From NCBI GenBank assembly GCA_020723765.1, contig DYIF01000005.1:713-64712 (forward strand): DNA of 64,000 nucleotides, given 5' to 3'. This document shows positions 44,052 to 56,171 of the stretch, piece by piece (positions within the stretch are counted from its first letter, which is position 1; each line of letters opens with the position of its first letter). The stretch is from Elusimicrobium minutum (GTDB lineage: Bacteria; Elusimicrobiota; Elusimicrobia; Elusimicrobiales; UBA9959). A program made the position numbers and the translations under genes. The notes below the pieces were generated by a model. That model was not told where the DNA came from. It made no database searches and saw nothing but the letters and a program-made list of their open reading frames with translations.

Positions 44052-45218
44052 TTACTTCTGCCTTCCCATCCCTACAACCTGAGTTTTTTGCAATAATTTC
44101 CCTTCCGCCTTGATAGAAGGAGCTATTATTATCTGAGTCATCTGCATCTCTTTTATATTTTTAGCCCCGACCGCTCCCATAGAAGTTTTTAACGCCCCGG
44201 CTAAATTTTGAGTTCCGTCGTCTGTTCTGGCCGGCCCCAAAAGAATTTCTTCAATGGTTCCGGTTACTCCGACATGAACCCTTGTTCCTCTCGGTAAATT
44301 CGCGTGAGGCGTGGCCATGCCCCAGTGATAACCCTTCCCGGGCGCCTCTACCGCTTTGGCGAAAGGAGAACCTATCATAACGGCATCGGCTCCGGCGGCT
44401 ATCGCTTTACAAACATCCCCTCCGGTAATCATACCTCCGTCGGTTATTATAGGCACATACCTGCCTGTTTTTTTGAAATAAACGTCTCTTGCGGCGGCGC
44501 AGTCTACGGTAGCCGTAACCTGAGGAACTCCTATTCCTAAAACGCCTCTTGTGGTACATGCGGCTCCCGGTCCAACTCCAACTAAAACAGCGCTTGCTCC
44601 TACTTCCATAAGGTCTAACGCGACCTTATAAGTAACGCAGTTACCTAATGCCACGGGGATCTTCATATCCTTTATAAATTTTTCTAAGTTTAAAGTTTTA
44701 ATTTTAGAAGAGTAATAATTAACCGTCAAAACCGTAGCCTGAACGAAATAAATGTCCGCTCCCGCGTCTCTGGCTATTGGACCGAATTTCTCCGCGTTTT
44801 GAGGTATTGAACTAACCGCGCAGTAAACCTTATTCTTTTTTATCTCTTCCACTCTTTTGGCTATCAACTTCGGCTTTACCGGCTCTTTATAAATCTTCTG
44901 GAAAACTTCGGTGGCTTTGTCGTTTGAAGCGTTTACAAGTTCGCTTATAACTTCCTCCGGATTTTCGTATCTTGTATTAACTCCGTCCAAATTCAAAACG
45001 GCAAGCCCTCCCGTTTTATTGAAAGCTACCGCCATTTTAACATCCACCACCCCGTCCATCGCCGAAGCCAGAAACGGGATTTTTAATTTAATATCGGCTA
45101 TGTTCATCGATATATCCACATCCTCCGGATCTATTGTTATATTTCCCGGAACCAGAGCCACATCGTCAAACCCGTAGGTATACCTCGCTTCTCGATTTCT
45201 TCCTATAAAATAAGACAT
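44052..45218 (-). CDS. IMP dehydrogenase family protein lacking the CBS (Bateman) insertion
   Basis: 388 aa. [18 protein letters not shown], and catalytic loop [23 protein letters not shown]. No CBS pair lies between the first two segments. Confidence 0.8.
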
Positions 45219-45361
45219 ATGACCTCCGCGGAAACAGAAATTTTACGACAGGTTAGAAAACTACGATATATAAATTTTAGTAAATTTTTTAAAAAATAAA
45301 AAAATAATAAGTTAAATCAATTTTAAAAGATTATATAATTAGAAGAATTAGCAATTAAAGA

Positions 45362-45505
45362 CTATTTGAAAAGACTTTTGTATTTCTCGGGTATATATGG
45401 GTCATATCCGGTTTTGTAATCGTTCCATACTTCTTGGCCAAATCCTTTTATTAGCCAGTTTATGTCGGTTGGGTTATGTATAATAAAGTTTCTAAAATTA
45501 TGATA
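45362..45505 (-). pseudogene. start-less open frame, possible C-terminal relic of a degraded gene
   Basis: Hand translation: (stop)YHNFRNFIIHNPTDINWLIKGFGQEVWNDYKTGYDPYIPEKYKSLFK*. There is no ATG/GTG/TTG in frame. It is locally less AT-rich than the surrounding spacer. No family recognised. Confidence 0.25.
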
Positions 45506-45581
45506 CTAATAGTTGACCAGACTAAATATAAAAAATATTATTTACTACCATTAACCTTAATAATTTATTTTTTATTAGCGA

Positions 45582-45616
45582 ACCACTTTTACAGACGATC
45601 GTTCGTATAAGTGGTC
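45582..45616. repeat. 35-bp nested imperfect palindrome, copy 1
   Basis: ACCACTTTTACAGACGATCGTTCGTATAAGTGGTC. It matches the copy at 46471..46505 at 33 of 35 positions, in the same orientation. Confidence 0.85.
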
Positions 45617-45727
45617 AGTGGAAGAGATAAATATCACTAAAGATTAAACAAAGATTTGGAGGATTAGATGAATGGACGACTGGAAGATTGGCTGTTTAAA
45701 TAAACTTAAAACATTTTCCTATCGTGC

Positions 45728-45811
45728 AACTTTAGACATTTAACATTCAACATTAATCTTTGAACATTCAACTTTGAACTTTAGACATTAGACTTTAAAC
45801 TTTGAACTATT
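45728..45811. repeat. 12 tandem heptamers (consensus RACWTTN) ending on the stop codon of the adjacent gene
   Basis: AACTTTA GACATTT AACATTC AACATTA ATCTTTG AACATTC AACTTTG AACTTTA GACATTA GACTTTA AACTTTG AACTATT. The last unit contains CTA (TAG stop of 45807..46337). Confidence 0.85.
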
Positions 45812-46337
45812 TGGCGTTTCTCTTTTTAAATGTTATTATCACTTTTCTGTTATCGGATATTCTGTATTTCAACGTGGAAGGGTCGGCTTTTTCGGAAATC
45901 TTTATTTTTTTAACAAATCTATTTTTCTTTTTAAAACTTTCGGATGTGTCGATAAAATCTTTTTTTTCGTAATTTAAAACCACATCTTTGCCTTTTACGT
46001 TAACGTAAGTTTTTCTCGGGTTAAGATTGGGTATATCCACCTCCGTAACCACCGTCTCATCCGTTTCCCTCTCAAATATCTTTAAGTTTTCGGTTAACTC
46101 GTTATTCTTTTTTACGTCTTTTTGGGCTGCGTTTTGAACCGCGTTTATTATATCGTTTTGAGCGTCCAGTATGAGTTTATGAGAGTTATCGCCGTTTAAA
46201 AACTCTTTCGAAAAAGCGTCCATATCGGTATTCAGCGTATTTCTTGCGGAATTTATTTCGTTTACCGAACTATTCGTTATCAATTTCTTATCCTGAGCCG
46301 ACATCAAAACCGAAAATAAAATTAATATAAACTTCAT
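45807..46337 (-). CDS. small secreted hypothetical protein
   Basis: The ORF track runs to 46388. A GAGGTGG SD precedes Met18 (46337): MKFILILFSVLMSAQDKK (signal peptide). It is Asn/Lys-rich with no recognisable domain, and it has its own promoter-like element. Confidence 0.55.
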   Translation of the reverse strand: MKFILILFSVLMSAQDKKLITNSSVNEINSARNTLNTDMDAFSKEFLNGDNSHKLILDAQNDIINAVQNAAQKDVKKNNELTENLKIFERETDETVVTEVDIPNLNPRKTYVNVKGKDVVLNYEKKDFIDTSESFKKKNRFVKKIKISEKADPSTLKYRISDNRKVIITFKKRNAK

Positions 46338-46399
46338 AACCACCTCTCTATAAGCCGAAAAAAATTTAAATCCAAACCTTTTCGGCAAACCCTAATTAA

Positions 46400-46427
46400 A
46401 TTATATAGTTTTTTTATAAAAAATCAA
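46400..46427 (-). promoter_or_regulatory. candidate sigma70-type promoter of the small secreted-protein gene
   Basis: Minus strand reads TTGATT-N16-TATAAT, about 60 nt upstream of ATG 46337. Confidence 0.45.
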
Positions 46428-46470
46428 TAGTATTAACAATTTAATCAAATTTCTCTTTAATCTAACACTA

Positions 46471-46505
46471 ACCACTTATAAAGACGATCGTTCGTATAAG
46501 TGGTC
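46471..46505. repeat. 35-bp nested imperfect palindrome, copy 2
   Basis: ACCACTTATAAAGACGATCGTTCGTATAAGTGGTC. Outer 10-bp arms ACCACTTATA/TATAAGTGGT are perfectly complementary, with a central ACGATCGT palindrome. It lies between the hsdR stop and the promoter of 45807..46337. Confidence 0.85.
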
Positions 46506-46557
46506 TTTTAAAAGTATTTAGTATTTGCAAAAAAGAGAATATTTTAAAAAAACTATT

Positions 46558-49500
46558 TCAAAAACTTCGAATAGTATAAATATTTTCTCCTTTGTCGGGA
46601 TATGAATCGTAAATGTGTTGGAAAACCAATTCGCATTTTTGATGGTATAAATCGTCATTAAAAGATTCGGGCAATTTCTCCAGAACTTCTTCAATACATA
46701 ACTTAACCGATGCTCTTGCCTGTTGTTTTTTTCTCCAGTCTATTACTAATTTTTCCTTTTTTAACTTTTCCAATAATTCTTTTGCGATTTTCTTAACTCT
46801 TAAAATTTCTTTTTGTGTCAGATTGATAGGAGTATTTTTGGTAAGCAAGTCATATATAGCAAGTTCCTCTTCAGTGAGATTTTCCGAAATACTTCTTTTT
46901 TCTTCCTTATTTAGCGATTCTACAAGCTCCAGCAATTTTTTATAATACTCTTCGACATTTACCGAACCCGCGTTATACTCATTAACCAATTCCTGAAACT
47001 TTTCCAGAAAATTTATTCTGCTTTTGTTTAACATATACAAAGCCTGAAGTTTAATTTCTATGGCTTTTTTAACCCTTTCAGCGATAATTATTTTTTTGCC
47101 TTTTTCAAATTCTTTTTTCAATTTATTTATATCAATCTTTGTCAAATCCACAATACTACCGGCGACATATTCTTCAAAGGTTTCTTTTGAATAACGCGTA
47201 TCTACTTTAACTGACCGGTCTAACAAATCCGAAACCTGTTTAATTACATCCGAAATATCTATTTCCGGCGAAATTGAATTTATTTTTTTAGATATCGTGC
47301 CAAGAAGTTTAACTACAGGCTGATATTTGGAAACGAAGGTATCGGGGAGAATTGCTTTATAAGTTCTTTGTATGATTGAATTTTTAAGCGCAAAAGTTTT
47401 TTTTCTCTCATCGTTTCGAAGAATATTTTCCACTGCATTATCTATAAGATTTATGCATTCAAGCTCTTTGGAATTTAAAATTTTCTCAATATCTATATCC
47501 CATTTTGAAAACAAATCTTTTATTTCGTTTATATATTTTTCAAGCTGAGATATAAGTTCAGATTTTTCAACAATCGGTGAATTACTTATCCCTTCTTTGT
47601 CAGTAGTTATATAAATTGAAAGCGCCTGGTTTAATTGATATAAAATTCCTATATAATCCACTATAAGGCCAGCCACTTTGTTTTCACCAAAAACTCTATT
47701 AACTCTGGCTATCGTCTGCATTAAAGTATGGTTTTTCATCGGTTTATCTAAATAAATAGTCGAACAGGACGGCACATCAAACCCGGTCATCCACATTGCG
47801 CAAACAAAAACCAATCTTAAAGGATTATCCGGGTCTTTAAATTTTTCATCCAAAGCTTCTTTATTCATTCTTAAGCGATGAGGCAGGATATCCACTCCTT
47901 TTTTCTTTAAATCTTCAACTTCGTTTTGAGATTGAGAAACCACAACTGCCATATCGGTTTCTTTCATATATTTAATTTTTTGAAATATCTCTTCTCTTTT
48001 CTTATCATCCTGCTCTTTTTTTAAATCTTTTTCCAATTTCTCAATATAATTTAGCCAGTATTTCTTAACTTTATCATACATTTTAACTGCTGTGGCTTTG
48101 TCTATTGCAACTACCATAGCTTTTCCCATAAAACCGCGGTTCATAAAATGAATTACTATGTCTTTAGCTATTTCTTCAAGCCTATCCTCACGAGTAATAA
48201 GCTGATATTCTTTTGAAAATTCCCTTTCAAATTTTCTTTCTTCTTCATCCGTTAATTCCGCTTCTCCGAGGATTTTATAAATATCTTCATTTAGATTTAA
48301 ATTTTTGATATTTAAATGAGGTTTCCTGTTTTCATAATATAAAGGCACCGTCGCCTTATCCTCAATAGCCCGCTTAAAATCATAAATGCTGACATAATCA
48401 CCGAAAACCTCTTTTGTTTTTTCTTCGCCGGCTATTAAAGGCGTTCCTGTAAAAGCCATAAAAGCGGCATTAGGCAAAGCGTTTCTCATATTCATTGCAA
48501 AAATATCATACTGAGTTCTATGAGCTTCGTCCGCTATAACTATTATATCCGAGCGGTCGGAAATTACAGGATGGATTTTTCCTTTTTCAGTCCTAAACTT
48601 TTGTATCGTAGTAAATATAAACCTATGATTTTCGGTTAATAATTTTCTTAAATTTTCAGAGTCTTCGGCCCAGACCTGAGCGCCGGTTATAATACCGCTT
48701 CTAACAAACCGTTTATATGTCTGCTCGTCTAACTCCTTTCTGTCGGTTACTATTACAAATGTCCAGTTCCCAGGTATTTTTCTTAAAATTTTTTGGGAGA
48801 AGAAAATCATCGATTCGGTTTTACCGGAGCCCTGGGTATGCCAGAAAACCCCCAATTGTTTATTTGTTCTATTTTTATACACAGTATTAAAATTTCTTAT
48901 CGCTTTTTCTACCCCTAAGTACTGGTGATTTTTAGCTATTATTTTAATTAAGCCATTCTTTTCTTCCCTGAATATCGAATAATTTTCAATAATATCAAGA
49001 AATCTTTTTCTATCGCAGACCGCTTTTATAATCGTTTCAAGAGAAACAACCCCTTTTTCCCCTTCATCGTTTATTCTTTTCCACTCGGCAAAATGCTCCC
49101 AATCCGAAGAGATGCTTCCAACTCTACTTTCGCTTCCGTTTGAAAGAATAATAATTCCGTTATAATGAAAAATTTGAGGTATGGTATTTTTATAATCCCT
49201 TAAATTATTATCATAAGCTTCCTTGATATTTTTACTAAAAGCTTTTAATTCAATAAATAACAGCGGTATCCCGTTAACAAACCCTACAAGGTCAGCTCTT
49301 CTTGTGTAAATATCGCCGGAAACCCAGAACTGCGATGCTAAAAGAAAATCATTATTTTCTGGATTATCCCAGTCTATTATCTTTAATCTCTCGGAAACCG
49401 ACTCGTTTTTATTATTTAAACACTCTACAACAACGCCATCTTTAATTAATTGATAGACCTCTTTATTGGCATAAGCCATACCCATTAGATTTCTATCGGC

Positions 49501-49743
49501 GATAATTATATTTATAGCTTCGTTTATAAAATCATCCGAAACATTTGGATTAAGTTTTTTAATTGCCGGTTTAAGTCGGGAAACTAAAACTACGTCGCTT
49601 TTTGTCTCGCGACCTAAAAAACTTTTACCCGAATCAAACTCGCCATAACAATCTACAAACTCCCATCCCAAATTTTTAAATAACTCTATCGCAGGCTTTT
49701 CAACCATAGCCGATTCGGAATAGTTATTATTTGGAAGAGACAT
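46558..49743 (-). CDS. hsdR: type I restriction enzyme, R (endonuclease/translocase) subunit
   Basis: The ORF track runs to 49779. The likely start is Met13 (49743), directly after the upstream stop: MSLPNNNYSESAMVEKPAIELFKNLGW. Motifs: WHTQGSGKTES, IADEAHRTQ (DEAH), MQTIARVNR. Confidence 0.9.
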   Translation of the reverse strand: MSLPNNNYSESAMVEKPAIELFKNLGWEFVDCYGEFDSGKSFLGRETKSDVVLVSRLKPAIKKLNPNVSDDFINEAINIIIADRNLMGMAYANKEVYQLIKDGVVVECLNNKNESVSERLKIIDWDNPENNDFLLASQFWVSGDIYTRRADLVGFVNGIPLLFIELKAFSKNIKEAYDNNLRDYKNTIPQIFHYNGIIILSNGSESRVGSISSDWEHFAEWKRINDEGEKGVVSLETIIKAVCDRKRFLDIIENYSIFREEKNGLIKIIAKNHQYLGVEKAIRNFNTVYKNRTNKQLGVFWHTQGSGKTESMIFFSQKILRKIPGNWTFVIVTDRKELDEQTYKRFVRSGIITGAQVWAEDSENLRKLLTENHRFIFTTIQKFRTEKGKIHPVISDRSDIIVIADEAHRTQYDIFAMNMRNALPNAAFMAFTGTPLIAGEEKTKEVFGDYVSIYDFKRAIEDKATVPLYYENRKPHLNIKNLNLNEDIYKILGEAELTDEEERKFEREFSKEYQLITREDRLEEIAKDIVIHFMNRGFMGKAMVVAIDKATAVKMYDKVKKYWLNYIEKLEKDLKKEQDDKKREEIFQKIKYMKETDMAVVVSQSQNEVEDLKKKGVDILPHRLRMNKEALDEKFKDPDNPLRLVFVCAMWMTGFDVPSCSTIYLDKPMKNHTLMQTIARVNRVFGENKVAGLIVDYIGILYQLNQALSIYITTDKEGISNSPIVEKSELISQLEKYINEIKDLFSKWDIDIEKILNSKELECINLIDNAVENILRNDERKKTFALKNSIIQRTYKAILPDTFVSKYQPVVKLLGTISKKINSISPEIDISDVIKQVSDLLDRSVKVDTRYSKETFEEYVAGSIVDLTKIDINKLKKEFEKGKKIIIAERVKKAIEIKLQALYMLNKSRINFLEKFQELVNEYNAGSVNVEEYYKKLLELVESLNKEEKRSISENLTEEELAIYDLLTKNTPINLTQKEILRVKKIAKELLEKLKKEKLVIDWRKKQQARASVKLCIEEVLEKLPESFNDDLYHQKCELVFQHIYDSYPDKGENIYTIRSF

Positions 49744-49745
49744 AA

Positions 49746-51029
49746 TTAAAAATCCTTTTTTAATAATCTTTCTTGCCAATAACTTATAGTTTCTTCACTT
49801 ATTGTATCCCAATTAAAAGCCAAAAATATTTTTCGAGCTATTTCATTTGCCTTTTCCTTCCATGAAGATGTTAAATCAATCATATCTATCTTCATTTCAT
49901 AAGTGAGAGTTTTTTCTAAAGAAAAATAATTACCATGAAAATTAACTTCCGGATTTAAACAAATAAGTTTTCTATTATCGACATTAACTAAAGTTATATT
50001 AATGTTTAAGTATGAATTTCGAGATACTTCTTGATAATATCTTTTGAAAAATAAAAAAAACTCTGTAAGTGAATAAATTACGTTTATAAAATCTAATACT
50101 TGTTTCCCATCTTTTCTAAAAGATTTATCATCTTCCCCAAAAGTAGATACCCAAGCGAATAATCCGCTATTATAAAATCTCCATGCTTCGGTATGATATT
50201 CCCATTTAGCAAAAGATTGTCTTCCATTATTAAAATTAGTAGTATTTTTGTAATCAATATGTGGAAAATCCCAACCTCTTAAATCAACTTTATTTTTTTC
50301 CACTAATTCTTTTATCTTTTTCTGATCTAATCTATTATGAATATAATTCTCTGGATATGCAAAGATTTTCCAATAACCTTTATCTTTAATTATTCCAATC
50401 TTTTCAGTTGCAAATATAGAATACTGTTCAAACTCTAATTTGTATCTCTCTTTTGACTCTTGACTATATGTTAAACTCTTCCCTTCAATCAATTTTTTAA
50501 TGTTTTCCAATAATTCATTACTTTTTCTTCTAATAGCTCTATTTAAAAATTCTCTCATTTGTTCTGAAGAAGATATAACTTCGGTTGTCGCTTTTTCTGT
50601 TCTTATATAAATTTGTCCTTCTTGTAAAATTAATTTGTTATCTTGAGAGTGTAAGTTGTTTTTACAAATAACGGGTAATTCTTTAAATTCAGGCACATCA
50701 ATTATAACAACATATTTTTCATCAATATTAAACTTATAAATAAGACAAGAATATTCTGGGTCCGTATAATTGTGTAATAAATCATTAATTTTAGTTGAGT
50801 CAAAAGATTCAAAATCTTCTTTAGATAGACCTATAAATTCAAAATCTTTATCTCTTACACCAAACACAATCTTTCCACCATCTTGCGTATTAAACATAGC
50901 AATTATGTCTTTTATTACTTGTCCTTTTTCCGATTTTAAGGCATTATCCCAATTGAATTTTTCTTTATAGTCAAGATTTTTACTTTCATTTTTTCTTAAT
51001 AGCAACTCTTTTGCTTCTTTTTCTGTCAT
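49746..51029 (-). CDS. AlbA_2 (Schlafen-like, 'divergent AAA') domain protein with uncharacterised C-terminal domain
   Basis: 427 aa. The N-terminus ESKNLDYKEKF...IKDIIAMFNTQDGGKIVFGVRDKDFEFIGL...VVIIDVPEFKELPVICK...GQIYIRTEKAT fits the AlbA_2 pattern. I did not recognise the C-terminal 250 aa (RGWDFPH, WEYHTEAWRFYNSGLF). Confidence 0.65.
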   Translation of the reverse strand: MTEKEAKELLLRKNESKNLDYKEKFNWDNALKSEKGQVIKDIIAMFNTQDGGKIVFGVRDKDFEFIGLSKEDFESFDSTKINDLLHNYTDPEYSCLIYKFNIDEKYVVIIDVPEFKELPVICKNNLHSQDNKLILQEGQIYIRTEKATTEVISSSEQMREFLNRAIRRKSNELLENIKKLIEGKSLTYSQESKERYKLEFEQYSIFATEKIGIIKDKGYWKIFAYPENYIHNRLDQKKIKELVEKNKVDLRGWDFPHIDYKNTTNFNNGRQSFAKWEYHTEAWRFYNSGLFAWVSTFGEDDKSFRKDGKQVLDFINVIYSLTEFFLFFKRYYQEVSRNSYLNINITLVNVDNRKLICLNPEVNFHGNYFSLEKTLTYEMKIDMIDLTSSWKEKANEIARKIFLAFNWDTISEETISYWQERLLKKDF

Positions 51030-51032
51030 TAT

Positions 51033-52304
51033 TTAAATCTTCTCTTTATCAGTTTCTCTTACTTTAATCTCCAAATCTGAGACATCTAATTCACCGGAAA
51101 TAAGTTTTGGTAACAAAATATCTCGTATTTGACGAAGAATTTTGTTTTGTTTTTGATAAACTAATATTGAATTAATTATTGGTCTTGCTAATTTATCATA
51201 TTCTTCAATTATATTTTCTTTTGGAAATAACCATTTAATTCGTGCTAAACCTTCATTTGTCAAAGACATTTGAGTTGCACCAGTACAAAATATATCTTTT
51301 TGTTTATGAAATTCTTGCGACTTTATTGATATAAAAAGAAAACTTAACCACTTCTCAGATATAGCTTCAAATCCAACAAATCCTGATGACAGGATAATAG
51401 AATCTACTAAATCTAAATTAGGGGTAGAAAACAACAAAACTTTATAAGTATCTTTCATTCTTGCAAACCATACTGAATTTAAAACTGGTTGTTTTTGAGC
51501 ACGACTTGGTTTATTATGATAAGAATATTCAATCCCATCTTTAACAAAATCAATACCTTCTACATCCGCTGTCGCAAAATACTTTTTAGTCCCTTGATAA
51601 GGCAAAATATTTTCATTAACTAATCTTAAATATGGAATTTCTAAAAAAGTTTTCACTTCCCAGCCTTCGGGGATTTTTCCTAATTCGGAATCAACAAATT
51701 TAACTTTCTCATAACCGGGAAATCTAAATTTTACAAACCATTCTTTATAAATGGCATCAGCCATCTGCTCAAGAATTTTAATTCTTTTTGTATTATTTTC
51801 AATCAAATCATCATAAGCCGAAAGAATCGAAGCGATTTTTTGCTGTATTGGATATTTATGGATTTGCAACTCATACTCTTCAAAAAATTTTTTATTATAT
51901 ATTGCTTTGCCTGAACCAGTCCCCATAGCTATTGATTTGATTTTAGGTGTTTCATATATAAGACGATAATACACATATTCAGGAACATATTTTTTCTGAT
52001 TAACAATAATGGCATTTATTTGCTGATTAGTAAAACTATAAGTTTTAGTCATGCAAATTTTCCCTATAGTAGAACCAATACACACATAACAAACTGTTTT
52101 TGGCGGAAGAATTTTGTTTTTCTGACTAAGATAACCTAGTTTAGAGAGACCGCGTTCTGTATTTTGAATAAAATAAAAATCATAAGATAAAATATCTGTA
52201 GGAGTAATAAAAGGATAGTCATTTCCAAACAATTCAGGCTTTTTTGTGGATGGAGTTTTACCTGTAATGATTTCTCCCAAATCTTTTATTTTAATAGTTT
52301 GCAT
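51033..52304 (-). CDS. hsdS: type I restriction enzyme, S (specificity) subunit
   Basis: 423 aa. Two target-recognition halves separated by conserved helices: QQKIASILSAYDDLIENNTKRIKILEQMADAIYKEWFVKFRFPG and C-terminal QNKILRQIRDILLPKLISGEL. Confidence 0.85.
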   Translation of the reverse strand: MQTIKIKDLGEIITGKTPSTKKPELFGNDYPFITPTDILSYDFYFIQNTERGLSKLGYLSQKNKILPPKTVCYVCIGSTIGKICMTKTYSFTNQQINAIIVNQKKYVPEYVYYRLIYETPKIKSIAMGTGSGKAIYNKKFFEEYELQIHKYPIQQKIASILSAYDDLIENNTKRIKILEQMADAIYKEWFVKFRFPGYEKVKFVDSELGKIPEGWEVKTFLEIPYLRLVNENILPYQGTKKYFATADVEGIDFVKDGIEYSYHNKPSRAQKQPVLNSVWFARMKDTYKVLLFSTPNLDLVDSIILSSGFVGFEAISEKWLSFLFISIKSQEFHKQKDIFCTGATQMSLTNEGLARIKWLFPKENIIEEYDKLARPIINSILVYQKQNKILRQIRDILLPKLISGELDVSDLEIKVRETDKEKI

Positions 52305-52315
52305 AATTTAACAAT

Positions 52316-52810
52316 TTATTTACATTTATTTCTAATTTCTATTGCTTCTTCTACCCACGATTCAATATTATTTCTAATATAGTTATATACGTCCTTACTA
52401 TCATAATAAGGTGGATCATAAGTTTTTACTATGTATGATAACAATTTCCCATTAAGTTCAAAATTGTCAAAAGGATTCTTCCCTTTCAAACCTTGATTCC
52501 CATCCTTATCTTTTAAATTATGGATATATATTCCAAATAAACCTTTACCATTATTCCAAGATTTTTCAATCTCATAATTAATCCATTTTCTACCTGCAGT
52601 ATTTGTTCCTATAAGGACCACAGTGCAAGATTTATCTTTCAATTGCTCATCAATCCAATTTTCTATTGCTCGGTCTCCACCTCTTATGATTTGTTCCCAA
52701 TCATTATCAGACACTGGTTGGTTTCCTTCAATTATTCCTATATTTCTAATTTGCGATGCACGCCAGTTGTCCGCTTTATAATGAAAACTAAAAAATACCT
52801 TTCTTGCCAT
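52316..52810 (-). CDS. ThsB-like TIR-like domain protein (DUF1863 / MTH538 family)
   Basis: 164 aa. KVFFSFHYKADNWRASQIRN, SCTVVLIGTNTAGRKWINYEIEKS (conserved Glu, E80), GIYIHNLKDKDGNQGLKGKNPFD. From memory this pattern matches Thoeris ThsB / PF08937 proteins. Confidence 0.7.
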   Translation of the reverse strand: MARKVFFSFHYKADNWRASQIRNIGIIEGNQPVSDNDWEQIIRGGDRAIENWIDEQLKDKSCTVVLIGTNTAGRKWINYEIEKSWNNGKGLFGIYIHNLKDKDGNQGLKGKNPFDNFELNGKLLSYIVKTYDPPYYDSKDVYNYIRNNIESWVEEAIEIRNKCK

Positions 52811-52811
52811 T

Positions 52812-53213
52812 TTATTTTCCTCCTAATATTCTAATCACAACTACTACTAAAAGCATTGTCCCATAAAAAGGCAATAGAGTTTTTGAAAAAATAACTTTAG
52901 TCAAACATTCCATTTCATCTTTTCTAAGAAGTGATTTTGTATCTAAACAAAAATCTACTTTTTCTAATTGTCTTGCCTTATCATAAAATTTTCGATATTC
53001 TCTTTCTATTTTTAAAAAATACCCATCTAAAATCCAAAAAACTATTATTGGTAAAAAAGCCACATTAACAAATGCTATATTTGAATCTTTAGCAGACAAA
53101 GCAAACAAAGCAGAAACTAAAATTGCAGTCCATTCTTTTAAAAGAAAAGAATTATTAGCCATACGACTGATAATATTTTGAATCATTTCTAAATATCTTA
53201 TTTTATCTTCCAT
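52812..53213 (-). CDS. small three-helix membrane protein, candidate effector (SLATT-like topology, hypothesis)
   Basis: The ORF track runs to 53249 from a TTG. An AGAGGT SD precedes ATG Met13 (53213): MEDKIRYLEMIQNIISRMANNSF. This amphipathic helix is followed by TM helices WTAILVSALFALSA and VAFLPIIVFWILDGYFL, a charged helix KIEREYRKFYDKARQ, and a C-terminal TM LLPFYGTMLLVVVVIRIL. Confidence 0.55.
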   Translation of the reverse strand: MEDKIRYLEMIQNIISRMANNSFLLKEWTAILVSALFALSAKDSNIAFVNVAFLPIIVFWILDGYFLKIEREYRKFYDKARQLEKVDFCLDTKSLLRKDEMECLTKVIFSKTLLPFYGTMLLVVVVIRILGGK

Positions 53214-53220
53214 ATTACCT

Positions 53221-53802
53221 CTAATGTTTATAAGGTTTTCTCCCTTCAAGCCAACTATTGAAACTTACATATATATCGACATCATCATGAATCCATAATG
53301 TCATTTTACCTGAACCTTCAATCCGATCTTTTGTGACATAAGGATAAAGTCCTAAATATTCCTGTCCCTTATATTCATCGGTTATTGATGATGACTGGGA
53401 AATGGGTAGTATTGCAACTTTTCCTTTTAAAGCATCAAAATAACCAAGTTCCCATGACATCCACTTTGAATTTGGTGAATTTTCAGATGTAACAAAAAAC
53501 AAACTCTTACAACACTTCATTCTTTTGCGAATAATTTCCGCAGTCTCTTTATTGACTTTTCCTCGATTTAATTGCTTATCTTCTATCCAATCAACATAAG
53601 TTGAAAAACCCATATTTTCAATTATAGTTTTTACTCCTAAAATTTCTTCAGCATCGGTATAACTATGTGAAATAAAAATATCATAGGTTTCGCCTTCAGA
53701 AAATGATAACGATGCTTTTTTTAGAATACCAATCGTATTTTCATGTAATAAGCAATATTCTTTTCTTACTTCTTTTATTTCCGCTTTTGTAAATAAAGCC
53801 AT
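53221..53802 (-). CDS. TIR-domain protein
   Basis: 193 aa. YDIFISHSYTDAEE (beta-A/BB-loop context), CCKSLFFVTSENSPNSKWMSWELGYFD (conserved Glu, E118). About 38-aa N-terminal extension. No other domain. Confidence 0.75.
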   Translation of the reverse strand: MALFTKAEIKEVRKEYCLLHENTIGILKKASLSFSEGETYDIFISHSYTDAEEILGVKTIIENMGFSTYVDWIEDKQLNRGKVNKETAEIIRKRMKCCKSLFFVTSENSPNSKWMSWELGYFDALKGKVAILPISQSSSITDEYKGQEYLGLYPYVTKDRIEGSGKMTLWIHDDVDIYVSFNSWLEGRKPYKH

Positions 53803-53816
53803 TTTACTTTACCTTC

Positions 53817-55376
53817 TCATCTTTTAGTTTTAAGTATTTTTGAAATATTTGTTGATATTTTTTCTTCTAATTCTTTAGCTTCCGCGTTTAGTTTTTCTAA
53901 TTCATCGTTTAATTCTTTAATTTTTTCTTTAAAATCAAAATCTTCCTCATCTTTGTCGGCAACTCCCACATATCTTCCGGGATTTAAACTCCATCCCTGC
54001 TTTTCTATCTCTTTTATATCGGCTACTTTGCAAAGCCCCAACACATCCCTATATTTAGATTCTGGAAAGTTTTCATTTAAGATTTTCTCGCTTCCATATC
54101 TATTTTCCGGTTTTTCTTCTCTATAGAGTTTTACGATATTTGATATAAATTCTATCTGCTCGGGGGTAAATTCCCTGTGGGCTCTGTCAATCTGGTTATA
54201 TATGTTTCTTGCATCTATAAATAATACTTTATCCCTTCTTTTTGTGTTTATTTTTGATTTATCAAAAAACCATAACGTACAGGGAAGAGTAACGGTATAA
54301 AAAAAGTTTGAACTTATTGCTATCATAACATCCACTACTCCGCTTTCAATAATCTTTTTTCTTATCTCCATCTCGCTTGCTCTTGCGTCGCTTGCGGAGT
54401 TTGCCATAACAAAACCAGCTCTTCCATTTTTATTTAGAGCGCTATAAAACAATTGAATCCATATATAATTGCCGTTATCTACGGAAGGCATGCCAAAAGG
54501 AAACCTTTTAACATCGCTTTTTATTCTTTCTTTGTCTATTCCGTTTACATTAAACGGTGGATTTGCCATCACAAAATCGAATTTTCCAACCATGTCATGC
54601 AAATCTTCATAATAAGAATTACCCTGAAGAATATCCCCTGAAAGACCATGAACCGCCAAATTCATTTTACAAAGATTAACAGTTTCGCTTGTTTTCTCAA
54701 CTCCATAAACACTTATTTCATCAACCGCTCTTTTTTTATGCTCTTCTACAAATTCGGCACTTTGAACAAACATACCGCCGGACCCGCATGCCGGGTCAAA
54801 TATTTTTCCATGAAACGGTTCAATTATTGAAACTATTAATTTAACAAGACAGGTAGGGGTGAAAAACTCGCCGCCATGCTGACCTTCTTTTATTGCAAAT
54901 TGTCCTAAAAAATATTCGTAAATTTTACCGAAAGCATCACCTTCTATATCGTCCGGTATGGAAGACATCAATTTTAACAATTCTATAAGTAAAGATTTTT
55001 CAAATCTGTTATAAGATTTAGGAAGAATACCTTTAAGGTCCTCATTTTCATTTTCAATAGCTTTCATAGCCTCGTTTATGGCTTTTCCTATATCGGCACT
55101 TTCAGGTAATTTTAATAAGTATGAAAATCTTGCATTCTCAGGCAAATACATAACTCCAGCTGCTTGGAAATCTGTTTTTCCTATTTTTCTTCTTAAATTT
55201 GTTTTTTGGGAAAATATTTTATCTTGTTTTGTAAATTTATAGTCGGCATACTTTAAAAATATAAGACCCAAAACCGGGACGGAATACTCGGAAGATTTTA
55301 AATCGGAATTTGCCCTTAATTTATCCGCGATATTCCATAATCTATTCTCAAGTTCGGAAAGCGTTTCTTTCGTCAT
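53817..55376 (-). CDS. hsdM: type I restriction enzyme, M (N6-adenine methyltransferase) subunit
   Basis: 519 aa. HsdM_N ([36 protein letters not shown]), SAM motif [12 protein letters not shown], catalytic MANPPFN. Confidence 0.95.
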
Positions 55377-55436
55377 ATCATTACCTTCTCTATTTTTGTA
55401 ATTAACAATCTACTAAAACAATTTTATCAAATTACT

Positions 55437-56171
55437 TTAATAAATTTTATACCTATCCGTTTTTATAAAAAGGTTTTCTTTTGAGGTTATATTTTTGAAA
55501 GAAACGGGGGTTATTTTTTTGCCGTTAAAAAGCGGGCTTTCGATTACGAGGCTTTGTATATCCGGCTTTGTTATTCTAAAACGGGGCTTTAGTTTTTTGT
55601 TTTCTTTTTCCATATCGTCTATGAATTTTAAATCCATAGTTCTACCCAAAAAGGATTTGAATTTATTTTTGTCTTTGGATATCCCGACGCAAATGGGTTT
55701 TATCCCGGCTTTAGAATATGATTTAGTCAAATCTTTAAAAGATTTGTCTATGAAAGGGAAAAGATATTTGCGATTTGTTTTATTAAAGAAAGCCGTTATT
55801 AATCTGTATTGTTTTTTGTGATTGGGCTCGGATTTTATATCGTCTTTATCCCAGGTGAAAAAAAACGTAAAATCGCCTATTTTCCCCTCGACCCATCCGA
55901 CCAGTTCCGAAATAAAAGCCGATACGTCGTTTTTAAAAACAAAATATTTCCTTTCATCCATCTTGAAATATAAAATCTCGATATTCATCAATTTGGAGTG
56001 CAGTTCTATTATCTTTTTGGAATAAGGGTTGTTAAAATAAACATATCCCTTTGAGTGAGGTATCGGTTCTAAGTTTATCAGAAAAGGGACGGAGTATCCT
56101 TTTTTTAAGGCGGTATATAAAGCGAAATGAGAATCCTTACCGCCGCTATATAATATAACGGCTTTTTTCAT
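55437..56171 (-). CDS. PP-loop ATP pyrophosphatase, ATP_bind_4 / MJ0570 (Dph6-like) family, paralogue of 5770..6537
   Basis: 244 aa. MKKAVILYSGGKDSHFALYTALKKGYSVPFLINLEPIPHS...ELHSKLMNI aligns by eye with the other copy, with roughly 60 percent identity over the first 65 residues. The shared C-terminal motif is SLVIESPLF versus SMVISSPLF. Confidence 0.6.
   Translation of the reverse strand: MKKAVILYSGGKDSHFALYTALKKGYSVPFLINLEPIPHSKGYVYFNNPYSKKIIELHSKLMNIEILYFKMDERKYFVFKNDVSAFISELVGWVEGKIGDFTFFFTWDKDDIKSEPNHKKQYRLITAFFNKTNRKYLFPFIDKSFKDLTKSYSKAGIKPICVGISKDKNKFKSFLGRTMDLKFIDDMEKENKKLKPRFRITKPDIQSLVIESPLFNGKKITPVSFKNITSKENLFIKTDRYKIY

Follow-up and report, generated by a model that had tools for sequence, protein, structure and literature searches.

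Type I (ThsB plus a SIR2-SLOG ThsA) and type II (ThsB plus a TM-Macro protein) Thoeris systems share a common design, in which a TIR protein makes an NAD-derived signal that acts on a separate killing effector. The window analysed here (the whole 64,000-nucleotide stretch of DNA, from an uncultured Elusimicrobiota lineage) contains a trio of genes that recalls this design and lacks its familiar effector: two genes encoding TIR-family proteins flank one encoding a small membrane protein, and all three lie within a type I restriction-modification (R-M) operon. A first-pass annotation took this architecture to be unlike any named defence system. Is the trio a new system, or a known one in an unfamiliar setting? 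Our analysis makes it probable that the trio constitutes a Thoeris system of type V, acting by abortive infection and comprising two ThsB proteins and one ThsF, whose genes sit as a cassette between hsdM and hsdS.

A Thoeris-like cassette in a type I R-M operon

The three open reading frames (ORFs) of the cassette were recovered on the minus strand with the coordinates and lengths first noted for them, packed between hsdM and hsdS. The upstream flank is hsdM, encoding the R-M methyltransferase (53817..55376, minus strand; Pfam N6_Mtase E 7e-84 plus HsdM_N; PADLOC MTase_I E 7e-224). It is followed by thsB1 (53221..53802), encoding a 193-aa TIR-domain protein, thsF (52812..53213), encoding the 133-aa membrane protein, and thsB2 (52316..52810), encoding a 164-aa TIR protein of the ThsB type (PF08937), with both TIR proteins predicted to act as phage sensors and signal synthases. 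The specificity subunit gene hsdS (51033..52304, minus strand; Pfam Methylase_S; PADLOC Specificity_I E 5e-76) forms the downstream flank, and the restriction subunit gene hsdR (46558..49779, minus strand; Pfam HSDR_N, SWI2_SNF2 and T1RH-like_C; PADLOC REase_I E 8e-178) closes the operon. Between hsdS and hsdR lies a gene for a 427-aa Schlafen/AlbA_2-domain protein (49746..51029, minus strand; Pfam SLFN_AlbA_2 E 4e-18), which has no PADLOC match and is a second embedded cargo gene, outside the Thoeris module.

From hsdM to hsdR, neighbouring genes are separated by 14, 7, 1, 11, 3 and -34 nt, a spacing that indicates a single tight operon with the trio nested in hsdM-hsdS-hsdR, as the first reading had it. 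The short gaps suggest that the trio is co-transcribed with hsdMS; scans for promoters and terminators gave no signal above chance level. The operon block (46.5-55.4 kb) has a G+C content of 26-32%, against 35-44% in its flanks, which suggests that it is an acquired island.

Pfam scans of the seven operon proteins detected no SIR2, SLOG or Macro domain, in agreement with the initial description of a Thoeris-like locus without ThsA. The locus is therefore not a type I system, with neither SIR2 nor SLOG matched in any of the seven proteins, nor a type II system, as the 133-aa membrane protein has no Pfam match to Macro. Likenesses to both types go beyond their shared signalling design, in that several ThsBs per effector are common among them and type II also kills via a membrane protein; unlike their effectors, however, the window's membrane protein contains no recognisable soluble ligand-binding domain.

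The membrane protein as an orthologue of ThsF

Translation of the central gene from the ATG at 53213, giving 133 aa, is supported by the family alignment, which does not back the alternative TTG start at 53249 (145 aa). Hydrophobic stretches occur at three places in the product (at about residues 27-43, 46-67 and 111-131), and its AlphaFold2 monomer model is all-helical (mean pLDDT 84), bearing out its description as a three-helix membrane protein. It matches the PADLOC profile PDC-M50A (PDLC04686; E 7.8e-44) and phrog_19896 (E 1e-38), while no informative name could be obtained from Pfam, NCBIfam or PHROGs. A Foldseek search of the model against the PDB returned no match below E = 1, indicating that the PDB holds no solved structure like it.

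The identity of this protein was instead provided by a recent survey of TIR operons in which seven new Thoeris types were validated (Yirmiya et al., Dec 2025, bioRxiv 10.64898/2025.12.03.692087). Type V, one of these, consists of ThsB and ThsF, and the type V system of Bacillus thuringiensis DAR 81934 protects B. subtilis (Yirmiya et al., bioRxiv 10.64898/2025.12.03.692087). We located the validated ThsB of this strain in the protein database as a 100% match (P0147), and found a 141-aa protein encoded 14 nt downstream of its gene on the same contig; its position, the consecutive IMG numbering and its size identify this protein as ThsF. This ThsF and the membrane protein of the window share 45% identity across 128 aligned residues (BLASTP E 5e-36), and a profile built from 36 family members aligns with the former at an hhalign probability of 100% (E 1.3e-47). 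The membrane protein is thus a ThsF orthologue, which assigns the locus, with its two ThsB genes, to type V Thoeris; the initial proposal that this small protein acts as the effector is likewise supported.

The organization of the locus agrees with this assignment. Type V systems place one or more TIR ThsB genes beside a gene for a three-TM protein of ~135-141 aa, with no SIR2, SLOG or Macro domain; in the window the effector is homologous to the validated three-TM ThsF, and ThsB genes with a catalytic glutamate adjoin it at distances of 7 and 1 nt. Versions with two ThsBs, apparently flanking the effector, are also found in Table S1 of the survey: two of its type V TIRs, IMG 2506607000 and 2506607002, have identifiers that differ by two, with 2506607001 between them, so that they apparently flank an effector, giving the TIR-effector-ThsB order of the window. 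The trio in the window differs from the published type V systems in its divergent sequence and its uncultured Elusimicrobiota source, and in combining two ThsBs of different TIR clusters within a cassette embedded between hsdM and hsdS.

Type V membership is argued here from homology to a validated protein and not from a Pfam label, because the label used in the survey could not be reproduced. Using hmmscan and the current Pfam-A, PF10028 (DUF2270) matched neither the window protein nor the B. thuringiensis ThsF; it was matched by six of the 36 family members, all below threshold (best E 0.0087), and DUF3278 was matched weakly by 12 of the 36. The PF10028 label in the paper probably rests on a different or more sensitive annotation.

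PADLOC provides a second name for part of the cassette. The membrane protein and the 164-aa TIR protein are encoded by adjacent genes that match PDC-M50A and PDC-M50B, respectively, and together constitute PDC-M50, a phage defence candidate in PADLOC-DB v2.0.0 (2023). PDC candidates are cassettes that were discovered inside BREX, DISARM and type I R-M loci (‘guilt-by-embedding’; Payne et al. 10.1101/2024.01.29.577857), and the type I R-M setting is common to PDC-M50 and the window. PDC-M50 is, however, a two-gene computational candidate, to which the window adds an upstream TIR gene; no paper in the collection searched mentions it by name. Gene content, effector family and a direct-gating model have thus already been published for type V, and PADLOC includes the core pair; with the system named and partly characterised, the claim of novelty made in the first-pass annotation fails.

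Other small membrane effectors offer looser parallels. Type VII Thoeris (ThsB plus the SLATT protein ThsH) and the TM effectors of CBASS and Pycsar resemble ThsF in being small multi-pass proteins thought to oligomerise on a nucleotide, but the type VII signal is canonical cADPR, and no Pfam match to SLATT was obtained for the window protein or its 36 homologues at E values up to 10, which sets type VII aside. The TM partners reported in a survey of Escherichia coli TIR proteins (PMC11350192) could not be linked to the ThsF family.

ThsF-like genes are widespread and usually accompanied by TIR genes. Species-representative genomes contain at least 558 of them, from many phyla of bacteria and archaea, and clustering the family at 50% identity gives 5,320 clusters (E up to 1e-3). 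Among the best 80 of these at least 558 loci, which span many phyla, a TIR-like ORF lies no more than 1.5 kb from the ThsF-like gene in 68, mostly directly downstream and on the same strand, and two or more such ORFs are present in 17. Four of the 12 loci lacking a TIR have <600 nt of downstream sequence before the contig end, and one has a broken gene. The exact order seen in the window (a gene like that for the 193-aa TIR, thsF, and a gene like that for the 164-aa ThsB) recurs in loci from Nitrospirales (L016), Opitutales (L020) and Verrucomicrobia (L064); other arrangements of TIR and ThsF genes occur in L047, L066 and L075. In two further loci (L007 and L008), the TIRs adjoining ThsF are 88% and 80% identical, respectively, to type V TIRs of Table S1. 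The gene content, domain identity and ThsF orthology of the locus, as well as the linkage of ThsF to TIR genes, are established by the present analysis.

Many conjugative plasmids carry the ThsF family. Plasmid-borne ThsF homologues in Terribacillus, Klebsiella, Priestia and Campylobacter adjoin TIR genes, and in the first three the TIR partner is homologous to the ThsB of B. thuringiensis. Matches of the same ThsB on B. cereus and Priestia plasmids have type I or type II-like neighbours rather than ThsF, which confirms that TIR clades swap effectors. A search for the exact ThsB of Bacillus sp. 1NLA3E, another type V system, did not find it; of two relatives of this protein, one lies beside a member of the SLOG-type family LD_cluster3 and the other has no effector beside it.

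Two family members (P0283 and P0279) are fusions of SLOG to ThsF. These tie the ThsF module to the sensing of nucleotide signals and support a role for it as a signalling output, and so they bear on a quite different reading of the trio, in which the TIR proteins would themselves be NAD+-depleting effectors, with the membrane protein serving as anchor, sensor or regulator. Certain bacterial TIR proteins are indeed NADase effectors, and the catalytic glutamate is kept in both TIR proteins of the window; but the fusions place a nucleotide sensor upstream of the membrane module, the signal builds up in infected cells that contain ThsB only, and 3'cADPR supplied to cells with a type V system is toxic (bioRxiv 10.64898/2025.12.03.692087). 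We therefore give this reading hardly any credence, and retain ThsF as the effector.

Two ThsB proteins and the signal to which ThsF responds

Both proteins encoded beside thsF belong to the TIR/ThsB family, as originally proposed, and Pfam assigns the two of them to ThsB_TIR and TIR_2. The 193-aa protein matches Pfam ThsB_TIR (E 1.1e-5, above the family cut-off) and TIR_2 (E 2.1e-5), as well as the PADLOC ThsB model PDLC00422 (E 5e-63); the 164-aa protein matches ThsB_TIR (E 5.2e-28), PADLOC ThsB PDLC00433 (E 5.5e-76) and PDC-M50B (PDLC04688; E 1.3e-67). The catalytic glutamates had been placed correctly at E118 in the 193-aa protein and E80 in the 164-aa protein, and are invariant in 13 of 13 and 53 of 53 homologues, respectively, encoded in the loci fetched around ThsF-like genes.

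By sequence comparison, the two ThsBs come from different TIR clusters. The 193-aa protein is 50% identical to the TIR domain of the ThsB from Bacillus sp. 1NLA3E, a validated type V protein, and 50-58% identical to a set of Table S1 type V TIRs that includes IMG 2506607000, IMG 2506607038 and the 1NLA3E ThsB; its identity to a type IX ThsB, from an operon of Paenibacillus macerans that failed to confer defence when assayed (Yirmiya et al., bioRxiv 10.64898/2025.12.03.692087), is 63%. The 164-aa protein is 65% identical to IMG 2509429074 and 60% to IMG 2506607002, both of which carry the label ‘DUF2270 - Type V’ in Table S1 (Yirmiya et al., bioRxiv 10.64898/2025.12.03.692087). It falls in TIR cluster 2661146773, shared with type XI TIRs, and is ~40% identical to type XI ThsBs.

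How might these proteins act together? In the B. thuringiensis DAR 81934 system, infection leads ThsB to make 3'cADPR, supplied 3'cADPR is toxic only in cells with the system, and the Tad1 sponge weakens defence (Yirmiya et al., bioRxiv 10.64898/2025.12.03.692087). ThsF, with its three TM helices, is predicted by AlphaFold3 to form a homo-heptameric channel in which the pockets between protomers are positively charged (bioRxiv 10.64898/2025.12.03.692087). By analogy, phage infection would lead one or both TIR proteins of the window, through E118 and E80, to convert NAD+ into a cyclic ADP-ribose-type signal, most probably 3'cADPR as in the validated systems. The signal would bind positively charged cytoplasmic pockets between the protomers of a ring-shaped ThsF homo-oligomer; candidates for the inter-protomer site in the window protein are K4, R17, K26 and R74, basic residues that are conserved and map to the helices by which TM1 and TM2 are predicted to extend into the cytoplasm. 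The ring may then open or rearrange, breaching the membrane so that phage replication is stopped and the infection aborted. The two distinct ThsBs probably widen the range of phages sensed, both feeding one effector.

This scheme bears on how so small an effector could be controlled. The first-pass annotation had judged it too small to hold a sensor, and had left two options: that one TIR-like protein senses a signal made by the other, or that the membrane protein is gated directly. The first option is without support and is rejected, as most loci of the ThsF family have a single TIR; the second is the published model for the orthologue ThsF, where the objection of size falls away with the proposal that ligand pockets form between the protomers of a homo-oligomeric ring. 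For the window itself, signal identity, oligomeric state, pocket location and abortive outcome are carried over by analogy, the experimentally validated ThsF being only 45% identical to the window protein.

Signal identity is the weakest step of the mechanism. [quoted passage not shown] 1NLA3E made 3'cADPR, yet supplied 3'cADPR was not toxic there, and the sole validated type IX system was likewise not activated by supplied 3'cADPR (Yirmiya et al., bioRxiv 10.64898/2025.12.03.692087). Because 3'cADPR was made but was insufficient for toxicity in 1NLA3E, and because the 193-aa TIR of the window is closest to the 1NLA3E and type IX ThsBs, the window locus may use another signal or require a second input; the 164-aa protein adds to the doubt, as it clusters with type XI ThsBs, for which no product is given. 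We thus regard it as a tentative possibility, worth keeping in view, that the same ThsB-to-ThsF design operates here with an activating signal, in this clade, that is not 3'cADPR alone: either a different NAD-derived nucleotide, or 3'cADPR together with a second, infection-derived input, and the two ThsBs might make different molecules. The single type V system in which the loop from signal to effector has been fully closed nonetheless uses 3'cADPR, and a TIR's clade does not reliably predict its product. On balance, 3'cADPR is still the most probable signal.

Placement between hsdM and hsdS

The arrangement hsdM-[TIR-ThsF-ThsB]-hsdS-X-hsdR is kept in the closest relatives of the locus, an Elusimicrobiales MAG (L091; ThsF 78% identical) and a JGI metagenome contig (L092; ThsF 72% identical), with position X occupied by a Fic/RhuM gene in both and by the Schlafen-like gene in the window. 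Between L091 and the window, HsdM is 76%, HsdR 69% and HsdS 58% identical, and the first TIR, ThsF, HsdM and HsdR all fall within 69-78%. The second ThsB of L091, in contrast, is 40% identical to the window's 164-aa ThsB, well outside the 58-78% seen elsewhere in the operon, indicating that this sensor gene has been exchanged, as expected of a diversifying sensor.

The same gene order, with gaps of 1-14 nt, is shared by the window, L091 and L092, three contigs that have diverged, as might be expected if the cassette were coupled to the type I enzyme in a PrrC-like guard arrangement, with the Hsd complex silencing the Thoeris module until phage anti-restriction proteins release it. However, an hsd homologue lies within 8 kb of the ThsF-like gene in just three of the 80 loci, so the embedding is lineage-specific and not required; in addition, validated type V systems function as two genes without R-M (bioRxiv 10.64898/2025.12.03.692087), and autonomous defence cassettes are commonly embedded in R-M operons (Payne et al. 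10.1101/2024.01.29.577857). Such an arrangement is accordingly very unlikely. Taken more broadly, we consider it improbable either that the placement between hsdM and hsdS reflects coupling to the type I enzyme or that this ThsF clade answers a TIR product other than 3'cADPR. An embedded type V Thoeris cassette is the reading that we prefer.

As a new example of a known system, the locus carries little weight as a discovery. It extends ThsF to an uncultured Elusimicrobiota lineage, and provides an example of a two-sensor version of type V fixed inside a type I R-M operon, as well as one of sensor swapping, in the second ThsB of L091 compared with the rest of its operon. The size of the ThsF family, together with its SLOG-ThsF fusions, should be useful for understanding how a protein of 135 aa senses a nucleotide.

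Variable positions within the hsd/Thoeris block

Across the hsd/Thoeris block (window ~45000-56000), G+C content falls to 26-32%. The housekeeping genes on its flanks, which on one side comprise guaA and the gene encoding IMP dehydrogenase, have 35-44%, a difference that fits acquisition of the entire island by horizontal transfer. Comparison with L091, the corresponding locus of an Elusimicrobiales relative, indicates that its components have not been conserved to the same degree. TIR1, ThsF, HsdM and HsdR share 69-78% identity between the two loci, versus 40% for the second ThsB (L091 8413-8916; window 52316-52810), so this sensor gene has been swapped inside an otherwise conserved operon.

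The slot between hsdS and hsdR also differs in content. In the window it holds a gene encoding a 427-aa Schlafen/AlbA_2-domain protein (49746-51029, minus strand), the 3' end of which extends 34 nt past the start of hsdR, while in both L091 and the metagenomic locus L092 it is occupied by a Fic/RhuM gene; the slot is therefore a second variable cargo position of the restriction-modification operon. The Schlafen/AlbA_2 protein has no match in PADLOC, and its gene is possibly another defence gene.

Within the trio itself, the public gene call for ThsF (52812-53213, minus strand) is the database protein P0001, which begins at an internal methionine and comprises 116 aa. The family alignment favors the ATG at 53213, yielding a protein of 133 aa; initiation from a TTG at 53249 would produce a 145-aa form, running into the upstream TIR gene.

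ThsF homologs on mobile elements and in a probably decayed locus

ThsF homologs are present on 134 plasmids in PLSDB, including 40 from Klebsiella, 36 from Escherichia (many of them conjugative) and 10 from Campylobacter, and TIR genes adjoin the homolog in all four plasmid loci examined (L081, L083, L084, L085). Three records of ~14 kb that were submitted as Vibrio phages (H26-H28) likewise carry homologs. In a Nitrospinales genome (L069, 7992-8393), the ThsF homolog is broken into two ORFs with no adjoining TIR gene, and this locus is probably a decayed system.

Fusion proteins, possibly related membrane families and Pfam annotation

Two proteins from the representative library, P0283 (378 aa) and P0279 (362 aa), carry an N-terminal SLOG-like domain followed by a C-terminal ThsF module. 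P0283 matches Pfam LD_cluster2 (E 1.7e-15); P0279 has no Pfam match, although its N-terminal sequence resembles that of P0283. In these fusions, therefore, the same three-TM effector module is joined to a dedicated nucleotide-sensor domain.

In a further protein, P0333 (351 aa), the ThsF module is fused to a domain that matches the Pfam family 8xMP (PF24838, 'octameric membrane protein') with E 1.6e-27. The validated Bacillus thuringiensis ThsF (L089, 3773-4198) shows a weak full-length match to 8xMP (E 0.012), and 8xMP and ThsF may be related oligomeric membrane families. A search of one literature library for the 8xMP protein family found no paper.

ThsF has been named 'DUF2270 (PF10028)' (Yirmiya et al., bioRxiv 10.64898/2025.12.03.692087). 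However, hmmscan against the current Pfam-A gave no PF10028 match for either the validated B. thuringiensis protein or the window protein; type V Thoeris will therefore escape annotation pipelines based on Pfam.
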